64,000 nucleotides of DNA from Bacteroidales bacterium. GTDB lineage: Bacteria > Bacteroidota > Bacteroidia > Bacteroidales > UBA10428. The notes under the pieces were generated by a model. The model searched no databases, was not told where the DNA came from, and was given only the letters and a program-made list of their open reading frames with translations. The stretch lies in the NCBI GenBank assembly GCA_016931575.1, contig JAFGEO010000146.1, forward strand, positions 55,728 through 119,727, in the 5' to 3' direction. Position numbers and translations under genes: made by a program. Of the stretch, positions 4,988-13,986 are shown piece by piece; position 1 is the stretch's first letter, and each line of letters begins with the position of its first letter.

Positions 4988-6634
4988 CTATGCCACATGA
5001 AGGGCCACATCTTCTTCGACCTTACCAATGCCTGCAATCCCGAAGTTCTCGACCAGCACCCTGGCTACATTGGGCGATAAAAAGGCTGGCAGCGTTGGCC
5101 CGAGATGGATATTCTTCACCCCCAGGTATAGCAGGGCCAGTAAAACGATCACCGCCTTCTGTTCATACCATGCGATATTGTAGGCAATGGGTAACTCATT
5201 GATATCGTTAAGTTCAAACACTTCCTTTAGCTTCAGGGCGATCACAGCCAGGGAATAGGAATCGTTACACTGACCGGCATCCAGCACACGGGGTATCCCC
5301 CCGATATCGCCGAGTGGCAGTTTGTTGTACCTGTACTTGGCGCATCCTGCGGTAAGAATTACCGTATCCTGCGGGAGTTTTTCGGCGAACTCAGTATAGT
5401 ATTCACGACCCTTCATGCGCCCGTCGCATCCGGCCATTACCAGGAATTTCTTAATAGCGCCTGATTTGACTGCATCGACCACCTTATCTGCCAGCTGAAG
5501 CACCTGGTTGTGAGCAAAGCCGCCAATGATCTCTCCGGTTTCGATTTCCGTTGGGGCCGGCAAACGTTTTGCATGTTCAATAATCTCTGAGAAATCTTTT
5601 GGTTTACCATCTGTTCGGTCGGGTATGTGCGTGCATCCCTCAAAACCGGATGCCCCGGTGGTATATACCCTGTCTTTATAGCTTTCCCTTGGCGGAACGA
5701 TACAATTGGTGGTAAAAAGGACCGGACCGTTGAAGCTCTCAAACTCCTCCTTCTGCTTCCACCATGCATTGCCGTAGTTGCCGACAAAGTGCTCATATTT
5801 CTTAAAAGCAGGGTAATAGTGTGCCGGCAGCATCTCACTATGGGTGTAGACGTCTACCCCGGTACCATCCGTTTGCTTCAGCAGCTCTTCCATATCCTTA
5901 AGATCGTGTCCGCTGATCAGGATCGCAGGATTGCTCCGAACACCGATATTCACTTTTGTCATTTCAGGATGTCCGTAAGAATCAGTATTTGCCTTGTCCA
6001 GCAGTGCCATCACGTTCACCCCGTACTCTCCACACTCCAGGGTCAGACTAACAAGCTCATCCACACTGATATCGGTACGTGTGGTGGCAACCAGGGCCTT
6101 GTGCATGAAAGCATATACCTTCTTATCGGTATATCCCAGGTTAAAGGCATGCTCAGCATAGGCAGCCATCCCTTTCACGCCGTAGGTCAGCAGCTCTTTC
6201 AGGGAGCGGATATCTTCATTGGACTCGTTCAGGATACTCACCAGCAGACTTTTATTGGTGATTGCCTGCTGGTCGGATGCTGACCATATTGCCGGATCCG
6301 GGGCACCCTCTGGTATGGCAATTCCGTTATCAACCAACGCAGATCTCAGGTTTTCCCTAACCGCAATCCCCTCCCTGATCTTGTTTGAGATCTTTTTATC
6401 ATCAAAGTTGGCGTTGGTAATGGTCATAAACAGTGCTTCAAAGACAAATTGGTCAGCCGCTGCTGCGGGGATTGAGTGCTTTTCAGCCAAAACAGCCTAC
6501 CAGGAAACTCCTTTGGAAACATAAACCAGCAGGTCCTGCAGGTTTGAAGTAGTATCCTGCTTTCCACATACTCCGATTTTTGTACATCCGGTACCCTTAG
6601 CAGCCTCCTGGCATTGAAAACAAAACATGCTCAT
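4988..6634 (-). CDS. hcp: Hybrid cluster protein / hydroxylamine reductase, 548 codons, with one in-frame TAG at codon 46 (6497-6499); possible pseudogene
   Basis: N-terminus [25 protein letters not shown] (Hcp cubane cysteines) is in frame with the 500-aa ORF containing [33 protein letters not shown] and WYEQKA. Confidence 0.93.
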
Positions 6635-6912: not shown

Positions 6913-7554
6913 CTACAGCTTATAACCCAGCATCAAATGAACCCCTGAAAACGCATAATAGGCATAAAAATTGGTGCTAAGGCCTGGGACTTCGTAGTCA
7001 AGGTCCAGGTAAAGATCATTCATGAGTGAGGCATTGTACTGAACACCAACAGAAAAGTCAGAAAATTCCCAGCTGCATCCGGCATGAAAATCAAGGTTTG
7101 CCTCGGAGATATCCTCATCTCCATCTGAGTAATCGGAATACATGGGGATGCTGCTGACAAAATTTTCGATATGCATTTCATCATTTAGCATGATATCTAC
7201 TCCCACTCCGGCATAGACCCTGAGTCCTGAAAAAAAGATCCTGCCGAATGATAGCGGAAGTATGATTCTATGAATGGCACTAGCCTCCTGTTCAGTTGAA
7301 GAATTGTACACCACCAGGTTCCCCTTGTTCAGGTATGAAGGGGTAAACTGTACATAGTACTTTGAGAAATCGTACCGGACAAACAGACCTCCAGTATAAC
7401 CTGCTTTTGATTTAACATCAAACTCAACAATCCTCTCGGAATCAAGCCTAACAAATCCAGGTCCTGCTCCAACATTGAGTCCTGCAGAAATCTGTGAGTA
7501 GCAAGTACTTGAAAAAGTCAGTACGAGGATGAGCAAAATGGCTGTTTTTTTCAT
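6913..7554 (-). CDS. Outer-membrane beta-barrel protein (PorT/OMP_b-brl-like)
   Basis: Signal peptide MKKTAILL; Gly/aromatic beta-strand pattern; C-terminal LGYKL. Confidence 0.75.
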   Translation of the reverse strand: MKKTAILLILVLTFSSTCYSQISAGLNVGAGPGFVRLDSERIVEFDVKSKAGYTGGLFVRYDFSKYYVQFTPSYLNKGNLVVYNSSTEQEASAIHRIILPLSFGRIFFSGLRVYAGVGVDIMLNDEMHIENFVSSIPMYSDYSDGDEDISEANLDFHAGCSWEFSDFSVGVQYNASLMNDLYLDLDYEVPGLSTNFYAYYAFSGVHLMLGYKL

Positions 7555-7753
7555 CGTGCAGGTATAGGTTGTTAAAATTTTTCGAATAGGCTGAACTTCT
7601 CTAAAAATACAAAAAAACTCGTTCCCGGACAAGCATCTGCCCTAACATATTGGTGAAGCAGAATGTCGGATCCCGGTAATAGCTTCTGATTTTGTTGAGA
7701 ATTGCCCCGATCAGCCAGCAGGAATAATCCTATCCTTGCATAAAAACCATTTC

Positions 7754-8116
7754 ATGCAAAAAGTCCTCCTCTCCTTACTCTTCCTTTTCATCGGGCTAAG
7801 CAGTAAATTTTCACAGTACACCTTTGAAAAGGGTTATATCATCACACTTGAACAGGATACCGTACATGGCCTGGCCGGGTCAGGAAATACCAAAACCAAT
7901 GCACAGATCTGCATCTTCAAAACAGAAGAGAAGGCACAGCCCGAAAAGTATACTCCGGGTGAAATCCTGGCTTACAACATAAACGACAGGAAGCATTATG
8001 TCAGTAAGCTTGTGAAGGAAGGGAAAGATGAATCAGAAATGTTCCTGGAGTACCTGATGGACGGAAGCATTGACCTCTACTTTTACACCAACGACCTGAA
8101 CTGCAAGTCAGAATAG
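7754..8116 (+). pseudogene. N-terminal fragment of a Bacteroidota exported/outer-membrane protein
   Basis: Signal peptide and a GYIITLEQDTVHG...FLEYLMDGSIDLYFY N-domain of a type that usually precedes a barrel domain; the ORF stops after about 120 aa. Confidence 0.5.
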
Positions 8117-8151
8117 GCAAAAGAAATAAGGTGATAATATTGTATGCCAGG

Positions 8152-8673
8152 TTATTTACCGGCAGGATTCCTTCTGCCGAATTGCCAGTGTAACCTGACC
8201 GGCAGATCGAAGTAGGTGTATAAGTTACTGTATTCCCGGTAGGATGGCTGGACTGTACATCGCAGTCCTATTGAGATTTTAAGCCTTGGCATGCTATCCC
8301 CGAAAAGAGTGTAGGTATAATAAACTCCCCCCCCGGTAACATATCCGTTTTGCTGCTCATAGAGAGCCGGTCCGTTGACCAGTTCCAGTTCCATCTGGTG
8401 TTTCTCTCCAAACCTGACACCCAGCGGCAACAGGATCTGATTTCCCCATCCTGTGTAACCGAATTCAAATCCTCCCCTGGCCTTAAGTTTAGGAGAAAAA
8501 ACATGCAGGTAATCCACCTCCAGACCCAAACCATTCCCTCCGAAATCAAATCCGGCGCTATGAGCCAGTCCGACCGGTACATTCAGCCCGGCTTCAACAA
8601 ACTGTCCACGGACGGGAAAAAGGGCAAAGGTCCCAAGAATAAAAAGCAATATTAACGGTTTATTGCAGCTCAT
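8152..8673 (-). CDS. Small exported beta-barrel-like hypothetical protein
   Basis: Signal peptide, amphipathic strands, C-terminal LHWQF; its start overlaps the stop of the upstream hydrolase gene. Confidence 0.6.
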   Translation of the reverse strand: MSCNKPLILLFILGTFALFPVRGQFVEAGLNVPVGLAHSAGFDFGGNGLGLEVDYLHVFSPKLKARGGFEFGYTGWGNQILLPLGVRFGEKHQMELELVNGPALYEQQNGYVTGGGVYYTYTLFGDSMPRLKISIGLRCTVQPSYREYSNLYTYFDLPVRLHWQFGRRNPAGK

Positions 8674-9542: not shown

Positions 9543-10817
9543 ATGCTGAAAAAAATACTTACAACATTTTCAATCATAGTTATTTACCTTTTCTCCCTGG
9601 CGATGTTTGGCTGGATGGTAAGTCATGTGGTAAAAGGAGATAAAAACTTTGGCATTTTAAACAAGCCCATTGAATTCATGTTTTCTTTCCCCGACACCTT
9701 TGCCCAGGCAGTAAAAGAGGTAAATACGAATCCCCCTACTTTCCTTCCCACCCCCGAAGGTTTTACCCCCATCAATAGGCTGGAAGAAGATTTCATCGTA
9801 TTAACAACGTATACCAATGAGGAGGATAACCGCACCGTTGCGCTGGTAAACCTCAAAAATGATGAAGAGCTTTATACCTGGAACATTGAGAATCCCTATG
9901 AGGAACATGACAGGATCATGAATCCACTTCTGTTTCCTGACAAGAGTCTGATATACTCCTTTGAAGGAAAAGAACTTGTCAAAATAGATGCAAAGGGCAA
10001 GGTGCTCTGGAAGCAGGATAGTATCTGGACTCACCATTCAAAAAATATCGATGCTGACGGAAATATCTGGATCTGCTCTTTCGCCCCGACATGGGCAGCA
10101 ACAGCGATGTATAAGCTTAATGGAATACCCGTCTACTATAATGACAACTACATTACAAAGCTCGATCCGGAAACGGGGAGGATACTGTATCACAAATCTG
10201 TTACCGAGATACTTACCGAGAACGGGCTTATACAAAATCTTTTAAAGTCGCCGAATTACCTCGATCCAATACACCTGAACGATGTGGAACCGGCAATGAA
10301 AAACACGAAATATTATAAGAAAGGGGATGTTTTCCTGAGTTCGAGATGTGCCTCCTTTTTTCTACAGTTCAGGCCTTCTACGGATAAAGTTATTCGCATG
10401 ATTGAAGGGCCTTTTGCTAATCAGCATGACGTGGACTTTTTGGATGACAACAGCCTGGTGTTTTTCAACAATAACTACTATACTATCTGGTCTTTTGAGT
10501 CAATGAAAACGCCAATGTCACCAACAGGTGTTGCTATAGCAGGCGATCTGTACTCAAATATCGGACATTATGATTTTGAAACCGGAGAGATCTCATTTAT
10601 TGGAGATTCTGTTTTCAGAGCTAACCAAATCCTGACTCAGACTGAAGGCCTGGTACAATTCGTTGATCCTTCAACCTACCTGGTCGAAGAGCAGAATACC
10701 GGTTTGATATGGGTGATCCGGGATGACGAAGTAATCTATAAAAACGTATTTGATTCGCCGCTTAAGGGCTATCATCATTTACCTAACTGGACAAGAGTAA
10801 TTACGAATTATGATTGA
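9543..10817 (+). CDS. Arylsulfotransferase (ASST / Arylsulfotran_2-like), N-terminally membrane-anchored
   Basis: HHS..D, DPIHLNDVEP, FLSSR and GPFANQHDVDF..FNNN motifs typical of ASST beta-propellers; one N-terminal TM helix. Confidence 0.8.
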   Translation: MLKKILTTFSIIVIYLFSLAMFGWMVSHVVKGDKNFGILNKPIEFMFSFPDTFAQAVKEVNTNPPTFLPTPEGFTPINRLEEDFIVLTTYTNEEDNRTVALVNLKNDEELYTWNIENPYEEHDRIMNPLLFPDKSLIYSFEGKELVKIDAKGKVLWKQDSIWTHHSKNIDADGNIWICSFAPTWAATAMYKLNGIPVYYNDNYITKLDPETGRILYHKSVTEILTENGLIQNLLKSPNYLDPIHLNDVEPAMKNTKYYKKGDVFLSSRCASFFLQFRPSTDKVIRMIEGPFANQHDVDFLDDNSLVFFNNNYYTIWSFESMKTPMSPTGVAIAGDLYSNIGHYDFETGEISFIGDSVFRANQILTQTEGLVQFVDPSTYLVEEQNTGLIWVIRDDEVIYKNVFDSPLKGYHHLPNWTRVITNYD

Positions 10818-10953
10818 GCTATACATAGGACCCGGAATGGGTATCGGGACGATCATCCTGATGTTTTTAATCGGGGGGATTGTCTTATTTGCATTCGGAT
10901 ACATTTTCTGGCTTAAGATCAGAAAGCTATTCAGGAAGAAGAATAAATCATGA
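10810..10953 (+). CDS. 47-aa single-pass membrane peptide with a YIGPG motif (not in the ORF track)
   Basis: MIELYIGPGMGIGTIILMFLIGGIVLFAFGYIFWLKIRKLFRKKNKS. Its start overlaps the ASST stop, and its stop overlaps the sulfotransferase ATG (ATGA). Confidence 0.8.
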   Translation: MIELYIGPGMGIGTIILMFLIGGIVLFAFGYIFWLKIRKLFRKKNKS

Positions 10954-12326
10954 TCTTTTATTCAGTACTCTTCCTCAGTTTCCTGCTGCTTGCCATGATT
11001 ATCAAAGCCTTAAAGTCAGTATTCTTTGATATTTCCGAAAGCAGTGTCGCAGTTGTGAATGACATGCTGGCTGATCTGGATGAGGATGAGAAGATCAGGC
11101 GAATTCAGAAGAGCACCAACCACCTGGTTGGATCCATGCTGAAAACCCTGCTGGTATTTGTTCTGGCTTTTGCTGCAGCAAGTGTACCCATTGTTATTTA
11201 CTGTCTGATTGAGGATTGCAGTCCGGGAAGCCTGGTATTCACCTCCTTTTATTCCATCCTTGCCATTTCGCTTGGAGCAACAGTTCCCTTTCTCATCCCC
11301 TCCGGAAAAAAAAATCCATCAGCCTATTCTCCGCTTTCCCAGCTCCTTCACCGCATGGCCCTGAATAATTATTATATTGCCGATAGGCTGTTCAGACAAG
11401 AGACCAAAAAGATAACACGCAAAAAGCTTGACCGCCAGGAAGATTTTGTCATTATTTCAGGGCTGGCAAGGGCCGGAACGACCAGCCTGATGAACAGCCT
11501 CTCTGAATTTGATCGCTTCGTATCACTGAGTTATGCCAACATGCCTTTTCTGCTATATCCAAATATCTGGGCCAGGTTCTACAAACCGAAAAATACAAAG
11601 CTGAAAGAGCGAAGCCATAAAGACGGGATCATGATCGGGCTGAACTCCAACGAGGCACTGGAAGAGTATTTCTTTAAAGTGAAGGCAAACGATGCCTATA
11701 TTCAGGATGATCAGCTCTCGGAATACAGGCTGCCGGAAGAAGATTACCTCGATTACCTCGATTACCAGAGCATCATCAAGCTGGATAACCGGAAAACTTA
11801 CCTGGCAAAGAATAACAACTTCATCCTGCGCTATCGTTCCGTCAGAGAGTACAACGAAAATTTTATTATGGTGATCCTTTTCCGGGATCCCCTGACCCAT
11901 GCTGCGTCCCTGATGGACAAGCACCGCGACTATTCAAAGCTGCAGCAGGAGGACCCCTTTGTTCTGGAGTACATGAACTGGCTGGGCCACCATGAGTTTG
12001 GTAACAACCATAAACCTTTTGTCTTTGAAGGTTCCGAAAAGGGTACGCTAGAGGATATAGAAACACTGGATTACTGGCTGGAAATCTGGATCAACTACTA
12101 TCGAAATGTACTGAGCATTGAGCATCCCAATACCCTCTTTATCCATTACGATGCTTACTGTCAGAATCCGGCCGGCACCCTGCGGACCATCCTACAGAAA
12201 GCTGGTGTAGAAGCAGAAATCCCGGAGCAAAAGACATTCGTAAACAGCAGAAAGACCAGTGGAAAATACACTGAAAAGCTTTTTAAAACAGCGGAAGATA
12301 TTTACCGTCAACTCCTGGCGAAATAA
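10950..12326 (+). CDS. Membrane-anchored PAPS-dependent sulfotransferase
   Basis: About 3 N-terminal TM segments; 5'-PSB loop GLARAGTT; KNN; 3'-PB motif RDPLTHAASL. Confidence 0.85.
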   Translation: MIFYSVLFLSFLLLAMIIKALKSVFFDISESSVAVVNDMLADLDEDEKIRRIQKSTNHLVGSMLKTLLVFVLAFAAASVPIVIYCLIEDCSPGSLVFTSFYSILAISLGATVPFLIPSGKKNPSAYSPLSQLLHRMALNNYYIADRLFRQETKKITRKKLDRQEDFVIISGLARAGTTSLMNSLSEFDRFVSLSYANMPFLLYPNIWARFYKPKNTKLKERSHKDGIMIGLNSNEALEEYFFKVKANDAYIQDDQLSEYRLPEEDYLDYLDYQSIIKLDNRKTYLAKNNNFILRYRSVREYNENFIMVILFRDPLTHAASLMDKHRDYSKLQQEDPFVLEYMNWLGHHEFGNNHKPFVFEGSEKGTLEDIETLDYWLEIWINYYRNVLSIEHPNTLFIHYDAYCQNPAGTLRTILQKAGVEAEIPEQKTFVNSRKTSGKYTEKLFKTAEDIYRQLLAK

Positions 12327-13986
12327 ATCCTGCTAATTCAGCATTTCCTTTATGAATCTGCAACAGGTAGTTCTTTTCCAGGGTTGAACTTCTCTTCTTA
12401 TAAATCAGGAATCCGGGGGACAGCTTTGTGATATTAAAGTAATCAAAATGCTTTACGATCTTAAACTCCACTTCCCGGGATTTTAATTCATCCACATATT
12501 CCCCGGTGGTCAAAAGAAGCATCTCAGAATTACTTTCTTGCAGTAGCTCATAAATGGAAAGTTTCATGTGTAGCTCATTGTCCAGGTAATAGTGAAACAG
12601 GTGCGGATCGATACCGTAAACCGCGGTGTATTCTCCCTGGTAATGATCGTTGATATATTTTGCCGCCTTATACCCTGATTGGTAGGACAGCAGCGCAGGA
12701 TAAAAGATAAGGTTCAGGAACAGTCCGACAAAAACCATGAGTATTGCCAGATTGTAGGTCAGGTCACTGATAAGATCATAGCCCCGTTTTCGGATGATCC
12801 ACAGCGTGGCTCCAGACAGCAGCACCATGGGCACAATCCACCAACCACTGGTGGGCCTGAACAGGATGCCAAATCCGATAACAAACAATGCAATCAGACC
12901 TCCAAGGATGTACGGGACATTTTTAAGTTTTTCCCAGAGTGCCCTATTAGCCGCTGCCAGAAGGAGGCGTGCCACAATGATGGCCATAAAAGGAAAGAGG
13001 ATATTCGTATAATGTGCCATCTGGAATCGGGAGAGGGAAAATACCAACAACATGCTCGCTGCAGCAAAAAAAGTATGGTACTCCTTCAGGTTCCTGAAGA
13101 TCCGGGGAACACCAATATATAGAAAGACAGACCAGGGAAAAAATGCCCATATCAGGTTGTATATATAAAAGAATGGATTCCCGGTTCCCTTTATGGGGCC
13201 CGTATTAAAAAAACGGCCGAACTGCGAATCCCAGAAAAAGAATTTCAGGGGCGAAATGTTTTTCTAACCGAAGATAACCTTGTCAGGATGATCAGTGAAC
13301 TGCACCTTGAGGCAATAAAGCTCGGGCAGAATAAAAACGAAGACCAGGAGCGCAGTCCACAGCCACCTGAGCTGCAGGAGTTTTTTATACTCCTTCCTGA
13401 CGATTGCATGCCCTGCAACAGCACTGAAAACCGGAATTAGTAAAAAGACCCCTTTAGTCATTACCGCGCATGCGGTAAGCAGACTGCCAAACAGAATGTC
13501 ACGAAATGTTGGTTTCCGGTATACATGGTAAAAGTGATAAACGGCACCGATGAGCATGCCCATCAGAAAAGGTTCCGCCCTGACATCGTTATTGGAAATG
13601 ATAACATGCATGGCGGTTGACAGCATCAGAACAGCGATGAGCGCGGTTTTTTTGTCATACCATTCTTTTGTAAACAGATAGGTATAGATCAAACTTATAA
13701 AGTAGAATACCAGGGCAGGCATCTTAAAGGCAAAAGAATTGGTTCCGAAAACTTTTATACTCAAAGCCCAAAGCCAGAACGGAAAGTGGGGCTTATCCAA
13801 CCAATCTCCCCGGTTAATGGTAAATAACTCCAGGAAATTATTCTTCTCCGCCATGATCTTCGCAATGGAGGCATATAAGGCTGAGTCTCCATTGAGTATA
13901 TTGGTCAATCCGATAAGATTAACAAGGATTGCTATTGCCAGCAGCCTGTTGTCAGACTTATTAAACAAGTCTCTGAAATTTAACAT
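12283..13986 (-). pseudogene. ArnT/PMT-like GT-C glycosyltransferase, 567 codons, interrupted by one in-frame TAG at codon 241 (13264-13266)
   Basis: ORFs 13264..13986 and 12283..13053 share a frame, joined by VIFG*KNISPLKFFFWDSQFGRFFNTGPIKG; motifs DSALYASIAK, WLDKPH, MTKG. Confidence 0.8.

Follow-up and report, generated by a model that had tools for sequence, protein, structure and literature searches.

The window, the 64,000-nucleotide stretch of DNA analysed here, carries three genes on the forward strand that encode an ASST-like protein (9543–10817, 424 aa), a micro-protein (10810–10953, 47 aa) and a PAPS-type sulfotransferase (ST; 10950–12326, 458 aa). A preliminary description had reported overlaps between these genes, and they are borne out by the ORF coordinates and the sequence of both junctions. 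The ATG of the micro-protein at 10810 lies inside the end of the ASST gene (ATGATTGA), giving an overlap of 8 nt, and the ATG of the ST at 10950 shares ATGA with the TGA of the micro-protein, giving an overlap of 4 nt. Because the small frame is under purifying selection and is found at the same position in dozens of other genomes, both the frame and its placement are far beyond chance. The module is free-standing and is not part of an antibiotic gene cluster. The window's genome also encodes an APS kinase.

The first ORF matches the Pfam family PF14269 (Arylsulfotran_2) with an E value of 4e-29 and 102.4 bits against a cut-off of 27. Its AF2 model (mean pLDDT of 90.2) consists of two helices (residues 2–31 and 37–61) followed by an all-beta propeller, suggesting an N-terminal membrane helix, a juxtamembrane helix and a beta-propeller of the Cpz4 or arylsulfate sulfotransferase type. 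In a Foldseek search of the PDB, two Cpz4 entries, 9kf4 (E = 1.6e-11) and 9kf6 (5.5e-11), took ranks 1 and 2 and E. coli ASST (4p04, 6.4e-10) took rank 3; as other propellers follow close behind the ASSTs in the list, it is the ranking rather than the fold class that carries weight for the identity of the protein. The family profile matches the Cpz4 sequence with an E value of 0.0015, and H-x-N and Q-H-D motifs are common to both. Residues H244, N246, Q294, H295 and D296 are invariant (n = 47 sequences), and H244 of H-x-N and H295 of Q-H-D align to the equivalent Cpz4 motifs. The membrane anchor is conserved as well, with L16, F17, L19, G23 and W24 kept at 90% or more (n = 47 sequences). By family model and fold, the protein is a putative PAPS-independent arylsulfate sulfotransferase of the Cpz4-like type.

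The third protein has a membrane base, delimited from the AF2 helices (about residues 1–117, 10950–11300), and a catalytic domain predicted to be cytoplasmic (11301–12326), which was assigned from PF13469 and fold matches. The score against PF13469 (Sulfotransfer_3) is 31.9 bits (E = 2e-7, cut-off 27), and a match to PF00685 lies under the cut-off of that family. The AF2 model (mean pLDDT of 90) contains helices at residues 2–20, 23–40, 45–88 and 100–115, followed by a sulfotransferase fold; the base is modelled, mostly at pLDDT above 90, as three transmembrane helices and a cytoplasmic helical hairpin. Y4, S107, G109, A110, F114 and P117 are conserved in the base, and no conduit-like conserved polar residues were found there in the ST alignment. 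The PDB matches found by Foldseek include Stf1 (2zq5, E = 1.9e-5), 3rnl, human TPST2 and TPST1, the CurM sulfotransferase domain, Stf9 and heparan sulfate 3-O-sulfotransferases, with the TPSTs at ranks 3–6 (E about 1e-3, TM-score 0.26–0.44). Invariant in 39 sequences are G171-L-A-R-x-G-T-T-S179 and the residues R312, P314 and S320, which we take to be the 5'-phosphosulfate and 3'-phosphate binding motifs.

The names of the two proteins reflect family resemblance, and a propeller and a P-loop-like domain might have been recruited to some other chemistry or to binding. PF14269 is little studied in the literature and the sulfotransferase scores are modest, both of which would fit such a recruitment. 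However, the H-x-N and Q-H-D motifs held in common with Cpz4 and the PAPS-binding-type motifs are invariant, sulfotransferases are the first fold matches for both proteins, and the pairing of exactly these two families, for which a relay precedent exists, is unlikely to be accidental. We therefore regard a function other than sulfation as very improbable.

The micro-protein encoded between the two enzymes is made up of a 4-residue leader, Tyr5-Ile-Gly-Pro-Gly, a Gly-rich linker, one transmembrane helix, Trp34 and a basic tail. The Tyr5 codon is read from the sequence at 10822–10824 and corresponds to the predicted periplasmic tip. The protein has no match in Pfam or NCBIfam, and its homologues, which fall into 35 clusters, are called 'hypothetical protein' in public records; it is the sole such ORF in its own genome. 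The pN/pS ratio is 0.19 (pS 0.77, pN 0.149; 1128 pairs). Of the five alternative frames over the micro-protein, two are open in 0 of 48 copies. Together with the ORF and its homologues, these values identify the micro-protein as a real gene under purifying selection.

Residues Y5, I6, G7 and P8 are invariant in two Bacteroidota alignments (A1 and A5). The tyrosine on which the preliminary description had built its proposal is kept in 35/35 sequences of A1, 46/46 of A5 and 37/37 of an alignment of signal-peptide-bearing relatives (A2), and Y-x-[GD]-P-[GSTA] is present in 82 of 87 profile matches from a search without motif constraint; Tyr and Ala(-1) are imposed by the search pattern in the metagenome set, and the results without this bias are those of the A1-pattern search (48 loci) and the 87 unconstrained matches. 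Departures from the motif include Tyr-Ile-Pro-Thr-Gly (L030) and Tyr-Ile-Gly-Val (P0072). Conservation extends into the transmembrane helix, in which L17, I21, G22, G23, I24, V25, F27, F29 and G30 are invariant or at least 90% conserved.

The A1 patterns, which omitted the Tyr motif, yielded 48 loci in species-representative genomes, and a stricter script located the peptide ORF in 47 of 49 related loci (L006–L054). Where the Bacteroidota contigs left room, the ASST was directly upstream of the peptide at 42 of 43 loci and the ST directly downstream at 41 of 43. Of the 39 Bacteroidota loci whose contigs extend far enough in both directions, 37 had both enzymes flanking the peptide; the other two are L048 and L029, the latter having an ASST and the peptide without an ST; these counts come from related genomes and are not independent samples. 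The spacing is equally constrained, from -11 to +5 nt between the ASST stop and the peptide start (41/42 loci) and from -4 to +8 nt between the peptide stop and the ST start (37/38 loci), so that overlap or near-abutment of starts and stops is kept across the module loci. The only conserved neighbours of the peptide are the ASST and the ST, in 48 and 47 of 50 sources, with the next cluster in at most 7; a third conserved enzyme or carrier-synthesis gene was not found around the peptide among these 50 sources. In a reverse test, an ST homologue was detected in 9 of 401 Bacteroidota genomes, including the window's own, and both the peptide and the ASST adjoin the ST for 6 of 7 full-length homologues in other genomes. 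One genome, G295, keeps the membrane protein and the ST, with the peptide absent and the ASST not adjacent; its sole PF14269 gene is about 1.29 Mb away. The co-occurrence on which the preliminary description relied thus holds almost without exception, and the trio is an obligate, widely conserved unit with few exceptions.

Most occurrences of the module are in Bacteroidota, and these come from marine, sediment and similar habitats. A search with the 37-sequence alignment of signal-peptide-bearing relatives confirmed distant relatives at no fewer than 521 places on metagenome contigs. In such relatives, at 22–40% identity, the two enzyme genes again enclose the peptide. At the best 79 of these loci (of at least 521), tblastn placed an ASST upstream in 40 of 49 cases with room (21–33% identity) and an ST downstream in 42 of 44 (28–45% identity). 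Seven loci with room on both sides had no tblastn match to the ASST, and in the three that were scanned (L099, L104 and L113) a PF14269 gene adjoins the peptide; an ASST gene immediately before the peptide is lacking at L055 and L065. Two distant members of the window's ASST family also score on PF05935. Some distant loci (L099, L104, L113, L120 and L138) encode a separate small membrane ORF of about 125 aa between the peptide and the ST. BLASTP found no similarity between this type of ORF and the window's ST base, and their equivalence in the distant lineages is therefore one of position only.

Natural gene fusions join the same three parts. P0052 (1010 aa) fuses the peptide, the ASST and the ST, P0081 (620 aa, from a cluster of 317 members) fuses the peptide and the ST, and P0138 (470 aa, 14 members, PF14269) fuses the peptide and the ASST. 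The peptide is at the N-terminus in all three kinds. We are confident that the module is real and acts as one functional unit in which the peptide is a subunit.

The residues before the Tyr number 3–7 and have a net charge of 0 or -1 in 47/47 micro-proteins. Distant metagenome micro-proteins carry a signal peptide, and its predicted cleavage would leave Tyr as residue 1; among 63 distinct metagenome peptides, whose Tyr and Ala(-1) were set by the search pattern, all 63 have A, V or S at position -3, and a hydrophobic upstream stretch is present in 62/62. The preliminary description had proposed an outward-facing Tyr, and the never-positive leader, the basic tail, the signal peptides of the distant relatives and the consistent helix parity in the fusions all agree with it. 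From charge distribution, signal peptides and fusion helix parity, we infer that the Tyr tip is periplasmic and that the catalytic domain of the ST is cytoplasmic, held to the membrane by the three-helix base; the same evidence predicts a periplasmic ASST propeller. Since the Tyr would be periplasmic and the PAPS domain cytoplasmic, the Tyr should be unable to enter the PAPS active site in the mature arrangement.

One reading takes the Tyr as the final acceptor, so that the peptide itself is the product, permanently sulfated and anchored in the membrane to provide surface charge, a ligand or a signal. The ASST could make the modification with aryl sulfates from the environment, or the PAPS enzyme could do so ahead of translocation of the N-terminal tail; RaxST is a case in which RaxX is sulfated before export. 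The leader, short and never positive, could allow the tail to be translocated after modification, and tyrosylprotein sulfotransferases are among the fold matches of the ST, although the ST resembles them no more closely than it does carbohydrate or lipid sulfotransferases. Aryl sulfotransferases (ASTs) are described in PMC13426309 as PAPS-independent enzymes that use aromatic donors and sulfate Tyr-containing peptides, which also favours this reading. However, one of the two enzymes would then have nothing to do, and in the signal-peptide forms the Tyr lies between two hydrophobic segments, for which co-translational insertion is expected. In the triple fusion P0052, moreover, the 'product' would be the enzyme's own N-terminus. 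We consider the peptide an improbable end product.

The best explanation overall, which we rate slightly below an even chance, is a co-translated single membrane complex that performs a two-step sulfation relay outside the cytoplasm. Translation of the three ORFs together would lead to one membrane complex, and this complex would transfer sulfate outside the cytoplasm, where PAPS, to our knowledge, is not available, to an acceptor in the envelope or the extracellular space. The relay may resemble the transfer from Cpz8 through a carrier to Cpz4, with the micro-protein supplying the phenol substrate for the ASST. Sulfo-Tyr on the flexible Gly-Pro-Gly arm could serve as a recyclable periplasmic sulfuryl station, acting in cis in the fused forms, by analogy with DltX and its acyl-Tyr arm. 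We propose tentatively, with the chances almost balanced, that the ASST either adds a sulfate to the Tyr or removes one from it. ASSTs use a sulfo-histidine covalent intermediate, and the title of the 9kf6 entry mentions a reaction intermediate; because ASSTs carry a covalent intermediate of their own, a protein Tyr station is not chemically required. As the Tyr could not reach the PAPS site in the predicted topology, the PAPS-derived sulfuryl group would have to cross the membrane on a membrane-soluble phenol (a quinol or other phenolic lipid) or through some action of the membrane base.

The preliminary description had gone further, with sulfate passing from PAPS to the peptide Tyr and then to the ASST. 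Its precedents agree with the sources, in which caprazamycin receives sulfate from PAPS via Cpz8, a pyrone and Cpz4, which hands it to the acceptor (PMC6731281, PMC4924298), and DltX acts as a Tyr shuttle whose invariant Tyr is close to the extracellular end and whose motif is fused to an enzyme in other pathways (PMC12148441). The co-occurrence, the invariant outward Tyr, these precedents and the Cpz4 fold speak for the proposal, whereas the periplasmic position of the Tyr against the cytoplasmic PAPS domain speaks against its first step, and the full relay in that form appears unlikely. We are similarly doubtful that the micro-protein is a protein-borne sulfuryl carrier whose reversibly sulfated Tyr swings PAPS-derived sulfate to the periplasmic ASST. 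For such a carrier, the uncharged hydrophobic segment of roughly 30 residues, with a conserved Gly-Gly at its centre, might enable the tip to reach either face of the membrane, and the three-helix ST base would assist in this.

Alternatively, the micro-protein may be a structural subunit that only joins the ASST anchor to the ST base, its Tyr-Gly-Pro-Gly tip serving as an interfacial cap or a propeller contact. The sulfuryl carrier would then be a membrane-soluble phenol made elsewhere, such as a quinol or a flexirubin- or resorcinol-type lipid, comparable to the alkyl-pyrone of the caprazamycin pathway. The whole peptide transmembrane helix is conserved beyond the tip, as are the anchors of both enzymes, which fits specific helix packing, and the overlapping genes and the fusions imply a 1:1:1 stoichiometry. 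A lipid carrier also solves the membrane crossing and matches the known precedent. Yet a structural role leaves unexplained why Tyr, the only phenol among the proteinogenic amino acids, varies least of all residues across subfamilies of 30–45% identity, why signal-peptide cleavage is predicted exactly before it, and why each of the three kinds of fusion keeps it at a free N-terminal tip; a carrier-synthesis gene is also absent from the conserved module. A purely structural micro-protein is thus somewhat unlikely.

The module bears on bacterial sulfation of molecules beyond the cytoplasm. According to PMC13426309, it is still poorly understood what PAPS-independent aryl sulfotransferases do physiologically in bacteria and which donors they use in nature. 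Here, conserved gene order, translational coupling and three independent fusions tie the phenol-bearing micro-protein to the PAPS enzyme and the ASST. The module is present in no fewer than 48 species-representative genomes and on over 500 metagenome contigs; our search found no description of it in print. If the carrier reading is true, it would provide the first sulfo-tyrosine 'cofactor', and the trio or its fused forms would be a self-contained trans-membrane sulfation machine. The Tyr-shuttle principle of micro-proteins would extend from acyl transfer (DltX) to sulfuryl transfer, offering a general answer to envelope sulfation outside the cytoplasm in diderm bacteria and a compact, genetically encoded means for sulfating surface molecules. 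If that reading is false, a widespread pair of sulfation enzymes would still have gained a new obligate subunit in the micro-protein.

Known systems share some of these features. AssT of E. coli and gut bacteria (PF05935) is a beta-propeller like the window's ASST and is periplasmic, PAPS-independent and active on phenols, Tyr peptides included; it is soluble and paired with DsbL/DsbI and is not known to have a partner PAPS enzyme or micro-protein, whereas the window's protein, a PF14269 member, is tethered to the membrane by a conserved helix. Human TPST1/2, like RaxST with RaxX, carry out PAPS-dependent sulfation of peptide Tyr; the TPSTs are among the fold matches of the ST, a resemblance that is generic to the sulfotransferase fold, and TPST-type systems differ in that the module Tyr is predicted to lie across the membrane from the PAPS site. 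The Cpz8/Cpz6/Cpz4 system of Streptomyces also encodes a PAPS-dependent sulfotransferase together with a PAPS-independent ASST-type enzyme. Cpz4 is the nearest solved structure to the window's first protein, with H-x-N and Q-H-D in common at an identity of only about 14%. The Cpz system has a type III PKS (Cpz6) for the carrier where the module has an invariant-Tyr micro-protein, and, unlike in the Cpz system, the two enzymes of the module are predicted to be membrane-anchored on opposite sides of the membrane.

The closest likeness for the micro-protein is DltX, also a membrane micro-protein with an invariant Tyr, placed between a cytoplasm-fed membrane enzyme and an extracytoplasmic transferase. 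The C-terminal DltX/PatA motif is described as fused to an enzyme in other lineages, a parallel to P0052, P0081 and P0138. The module has no evident membrane funnel like the MBOAT protein to bring a cytoplasmic donor to the Tyr, and the group transferred is acyl in DltX and, as proposed here, sulfuryl in the module. The motif is N-terminal Tyr-x-Gly-Pro-Gly in the module and C-terminal FXYXXF in DltX, and the partners are PF14269 and PF13469 proteins in the former and an MBOAT and an SGNH protein in the latter. Because the motif and the partners differ, the module peptide is an analogue of DltX rather than a member of its family.

The three overlapping open reading frames of the preliminary description were correctly read, and both their coordinates and their overlaps were confirmed. 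On the forward strand, an ASST-like gene encoding 424 residues (9543–10817; PF14269, Arylsulfotran_2, E 4e-29) is followed by the gene of a 47-residue peptide (10810–10953), whose ATG lies 8 nt ahead of the end of the ASST gene, and then by a sulfotransferase (ST) gene encoding 458 residues (10950–12326), whose ATG overlaps the TGA of the peptide gene (ATGA). The ST matches PF13469 (Sulfotransfer_3) just over the cut-off (E 2e-7) and PF00685 just under it in the Pfam scan, and the peptide has no match in Pfam or NCBIfam. The peptide starts with a 4-residue leader and the tip Tyr5-Ile-Gly-Pro-Gly; a stretch rich in Gly leads to its single hydrophobic helix, after which come Trp34 and a strongly basic tail. 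The genome that contains the window has three PF14269 genes, exactly one ORF of the peptide type, and an APS kinase, so that PAPS can be made. In one run of a sediment metatranscriptome, two short contigs of 236 and 244 nt, 100% identical to the window, fall inside the ASST gene (10099–10334 and 10554–10797); they derive from an RNA library, which is no proof of transcription, and they cover parts of the ASST gene only, not the peptide or the ST, the uncovered parts being uninformative.

Comparison of homologues shows the peptide to be encoded by a genuine, conserved gene. A word-indexed search gave 35 clusters of homologues of 42–73 residues (35/35 candidates), some of them annotated as 'hypothetical protein' in Draconibacterium, Schleiferiaceae, and Flavobacteriales records, and in their alignment Y5, I6, G7, P8, G11, G13, and much of the helix are invariant. 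For the 36-codon core of 48 copies (1128 pairs), pS was 0.77, which is near saturation, and pN was 0.149, giving a ratio of 0.19; of the five alternative frames, two are never open in the 48 copies, and the remaining three stay open in just 12 to 25 of them. The tyrosine on which the preliminary description had placed its proposal is retained as well. A profile in which no residue was fixed, searched against 1.8 billion representative proteins, returned 87 matches at E 0.001 or better, and 82 of them keep Tyr-x-[Gly/Asp]-Pro-[Gly/Ser/Thr/Ala]; the remaining five comprise one N-terminally truncated call, one spurious repeat protein, two unrelated N-termini, and one protein with Tyr but no Pro-Gly. 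An ESM Atlas look-up of the peptide reached a best score of 0.88 with unnamed clusters, which is under the level that counts and serves as a lead only. Two weak profile matches, P0109 and P0111, carry a signal peptide and Tyr-Ile-Asp-Pro-Gly-Thr-Gly-Ser in place of Tyr-Ile-Gly-Pro-Gly, suggesting that the family with such tips extends further still. The idea that a second conserved tyrosine, at the cytoplasmic end of the helix, serves as an inner relay station was rejected: Y31 of the Bacteroidota peptides and the tyrosine of Trp-Tyr-Pro in the distant forms fall in different alignment columns, and a third subgroup (e.g., the peptide of locus L052 and the proteins P0048 and P0068) has none.

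The co-occurrence of the small ORF with ASST and ST genes was examined with patterns taken from the helix rather than from the Tyr tip. In contigs representing one genome per species, these patterns found 48 loci, all labelled Bacteroidota except one MAG labelled Verrucomicrobia; together with the locus of a congener (L006) they make 49, which include related genomes and are not independent samples. Cultured Draconibacterium or Saccharicrinis isolates are the source of L012 and L044. A stricter script recovered the peptide ORF in 47 of the 49, missing one that runs to the contig end (L017) and one with the variant Tyr-Ile-Pro-Thr-Gly (L030). An ASST homologue lies directly upstream of the peptide in 42 of the 43 loci with room, an ST directly downstream in 41 of 43, and both are present in 37 of the 39 loci with room on both sides. 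Spacing is tight, with −11 to +5 nt between the ASST stop and the peptide start (41 of 42 loci) and −4 to +8 nt between the peptide stop and the ST start (37 of 38). When ORFs around the peptide were clustered, the only conserved neighbours were ASST and ST, in 48 and 47 of 50 sources, respectively; the next clusters reach 7, mostly within one synteny-sharing family. The trio is an obligate unit. Among 24 congeners searched, one contains it, as do 9 of 401 Bacteroidota genomes with the window's own among them, and its flanks vary by lineage; this patchy spread with differing flanks is as expected of a self-contained cassette. In the reverse direction, an ST homologue occurs in 8 other genomes of the phylum sample, one of them as a fragment, and peptide and ASST adjoin six of the seven full-length homologues, with the tip Tyr-Ile-Gly-Pro-Gly in four and Tyr-Gly-Gly-Pro-Gly in two. 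The exceptions are a locus lacking the ST (L029), a locus arranged as ASST-peptide-ASST-ST (L048), and a genome of the phylum sample (G295) with a membrane protein and ST only and its single PF14269 gene about 1.29 Mb off; they show that components of the module can occur on their own, possibly through decay. In L048 (4722–9204, Bacteroidales), the tandem ASST genes encode 428 and 425 residues, the peptide gene comes after the first, and the second ends about 130 nt short of the ST gene; the arrangement looks like a recent duplication within the module.

The same association extends to distant relatives. Many weaker profile matches are proteins of 60–120 residues in which a hydrophobic N-terminal leader ends in small-x-Ala right before Tyr-[Ile/Val/Leu]-Gly-Pro-Gly, and Trp-Tyr-Pro-x-Lys-Arg closes the helix ahead of a basic tail. 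A 37-sequence alignment of these forms has invariant Tyr, Gly, Pro, Gly, Pro, and Lys, with at least 90% conservation of the Ala that precedes Tyr. Searching metagenome contigs with this alignment gave at least 521 confirmed places, and the neighbourhoods of the best 79 of these were compared with the window's proteins by tblastn. Among these 79, an ASST relative (21–33% identity) lies upstream in 40 of the 49 with room, an ST relative (28–45%) downstream in 42 of 44, and both in 26 of the 33 with room on both sides. Seven of these 33 had no ASST match by tblastn; the three of them scanned with Pfam (L099, L104, and L113) all have a PF14269 gene near the peptide, on the opposite strand in L104 and with one ORF in between in L113. 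The tblastn values of L098 and L101 equal those of L099, and all three are probably one sequence; in L055 and L065, no ASST gene lies immediately upstream of the peptide. Two of the divergent ASSTs additionally match the classical ASST family, PF05935. The metagenome pattern contained Ala-Tyr-[Ile/Val]-Gly-Pro-Gly, which imposed the Tyr and the Ala at −1 in that set; position −3, which was not imposed, is Ala in 56, Val in 6, and Ser in 1 of 63 distinct peptides, and the hydrophobic leader, likewise not imposed, is present in 62 of 62.

In several distant loci, the membrane part of the ST is a separate ORF of about 125 residues (L099 7264–7641, L104 7234–7614, L113 3423–3800, L120 7190–7576, and L138 2424–3023, all on the − strand) with no Pfam match, and a Ser-Asp-His-Trp-Lys-Glu-Lys stretch is conserved in four of the five. 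Residues 1–130 of the window's ST had no BLASTP similarity to the ORF of L099, and the case that the N-terminal three-helix membrane base of the window's ST is the counterpart of this ORF rests on position and hydrophobicity.

Natural fusions join the same three parts. P0052 (1010 residues) contains peptide, ASST, and ST as a single chain; P0081 (620 residues) contains the peptide, extra helices, and ST, and its 90% cluster has 317 members, one labelled Schleiferiaceae; P0138 (470 residues, 14 members, PF14269) contains peptide and ASST. In all three types, the peptide is at the extreme N-terminus and the Tyr tip stays free. Such fusions speak strongly for joint action of the three proteins at 1:1:1, and they speak against the peptide being consumed.

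The AF2-modelled ASST (pLDDT 90.2) shows a propeller behind two helices. Among PDB structures, Cpz4 of caprazamycin biosynthesis matches it best (9kf4, and 9kf6, whose title names a reaction intermediate), and E. coli ASST (4p04) comes next. The family profile also matches the Cpz4 sequence (E 0.0015), with aligned motifs Asp-x-x-His-x-Asn, Ser-x-Arg-Asn, Gln-His-Asp, and Phe-x-Asn, and five residues (H244, N246, Q294, H295, and D296) do not vary, even in three distant members. A search of solved structures with the ASST sequence by itself matched only a designed Kelch protein (E 0.007), which was dismissed as not meaningful, and the corresponding search with the ST had no match. The ST model (pLDDT 90.1) confirms a predicted sulfotransferase fold, matching Stf1, an Alicyclobacillus sulfotransferase, human TPST1/2, the CurM sulfotransferase domain, Stf9, and heparan sulfate 3-O-sulfotransferases; all these matches have similar weak scores, and the acceptor class is unreadable from the modelled fold. 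Its invariant stretches, Gly-Leu-Ala-Arg-x-Gly-Thr-Thr-Ser and Arg-x-Pro...Ser, fit the PAPS-binding motifs.

An outward-facing Tyr end, as the preliminary description had predicted, agrees with several features. The leader of the peptide has a net charge of 0 or −1 in 47 of 47 copies and the tail is strongly basic, and in the distant forms, cleavage of a signal peptide at its predicted site would leave Tyr as residue 1. In P0052, the linker that joins the peptide helix to the ASST anchor contains six Arg/Lys residues, and our helix count from its sequence puts the propeller outside and the ST domain inside; by the same kind of count, the three additional helices of P0081 bring back that parity. 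From leader charge, basic tail, signal peptides, and fusion parity, we infer a periplasmic location for the Tyr tip and the ASST and a cytoplasmic one for the PAPS domain. Both anchors are conserved (L16, F17, L19, G23, and W24 in the ASST; Y4, S107, G109, A110, F114, and P117 in the membrane base of the ST), which is unusual for passive anchors and fits specific helix packing. Residues 1–5 of the ST (10950–10964), predicted to be periplasmic, have the consensus Met-x-Tyr-Tyr with Tyr4 conserved in at least 90%, a second conserved tyrosine at the outer membrane face near that of the peptide. Prediction of the three-chain complex, with alignments and the peptide as partner, gave ipSAE values of 0.01 and 0.02; no controls were folded, and the result counts neither way.

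The surroundings of the trio offer hints, no more, that the acceptor is among envelope glycoconjugates. ORF clustering of the 50 sources found no neighbour conserved across lineages that could serve as an acceptor clue, and GT-C, GT2, and LPG_synthase_TM-type genes are near only some loci: a methyltransferase and GT2 fusion recurs in 7 and an LPG_synthase_TM protein in 3 Bacteroidales-type loci, as does, in 5, a 615-residue multi-pass protein without a Pfam match. In the window, an ArnT/PMT_2-like GT-C glycosyltransferase gene (12283–13986, − strand) adjoins the trio, converging on the ST gene with a 44-nt overlap of the 3′ ends. It has a single in-frame TAG at 13264–13266; its N-terminal part (13264–13986) matches PF13231 (E 3e-15), and the frame is open again right past the TAG. 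A hybrid-cluster (Hcp-type)-like gene, with the family read from the sequence, at 4988–6634 (− strand) has an in-frame TAG at 6497–6499 that splits a Cys-rich N-terminal part of 45 residues from the 500-residue remainder, which makes two in-frame TAGs within 7 kb. Reassignment of TAG was rejected: across the genome, TAG acts as a stop in the manner of the other two, terminating 822 long frames, and frames read on past it no more often than past TAA or TGA. Nonsense changes at strain level or errors of assembly seem the likelier causes.

The precedents that had been invoked for a sulfate relay match the literature. Arylsulfotransferases (ASTs) do not use PAPS and take aromatic sulfates as donors, and they sulfate Tyr peptides among many phenols, their natural roles being unclear (PMC13426309); in the caprazamycin pathway, Cpz8 draws on PAPS to sulfate a pyrone, and Cpz4 hands the sulfate on (PMC6731281, PMC4924298); and in the membrane micro-protein DltX, an invariant Tyr near the outer end carries D-alanine between DltB and DltD, the DltX motif being fused to an enzyme in related pathways (PMC12148441). 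Because the trio combines the AST, Cpz, and DltX themes, we think by analogy that it would be a machine for sulfation outside the cytoplasm, in which the peptide Tyr may be the phenol acted on by the ASST.

The full relay of the preliminary description, from PAPS to the peptide Tyr to the ASST, stood in part: co-occurrence, the invariant outward Tyr, and the precedents speak for it, whereas a Tyr at the outer face cannot enter the active site of a cytoplasmic ST, and the weak point is the first half. The alignment of the ST membrane base contains no conserved polar path. A lipid phenol may carry the sulfate across, with the Tyr as an outer station or a mere structural cap. Schleiferiaceae-type loci (L013–L016, L018, L021, and L033 by neighbour clustering) have a gene for a FabH-like ketoacyl synthase III right after the ST on the other strand (about 7500–8600, −), and some Bacteroidota use such enzymes to make alkyl-resorcinol-like phenolic lipids. 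This gene could bear on a lipid carrier, but its synteny is shared by descent within a single group. The tip may instead visit both faces by means of the long uncharged hydrophobic segment with its conserved central Gly-Gly. The Tyr may also be sulfated before insertion, although as a catalytic cycle this is argued against by the fusions and the 1:1:1 coupling.

Mainly open-access literature on the motif, on PF14269/Arylsulfotran_2/IPR039535, and on the Cpz relay contained no description of the trio or of the micro-protein; among the papers listed for the motif, no title or abstract concerned sulfation in bacteria or a micro-protein of the membrane. We rate the trio as a putative two-step sulfation relay that is undescribed in these sources, and a sulfo-Tyr carrier, if real, would be a new kind of thing. 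Compared with the Cpz relay, the trio has a micro-protein where Cpz has a small-molecule carrier, and its predicted layout is trans-membrane. With DltX it shares a membrane micro-protein, an invariant Tyr toward the outer end, and fused forms elsewhere.
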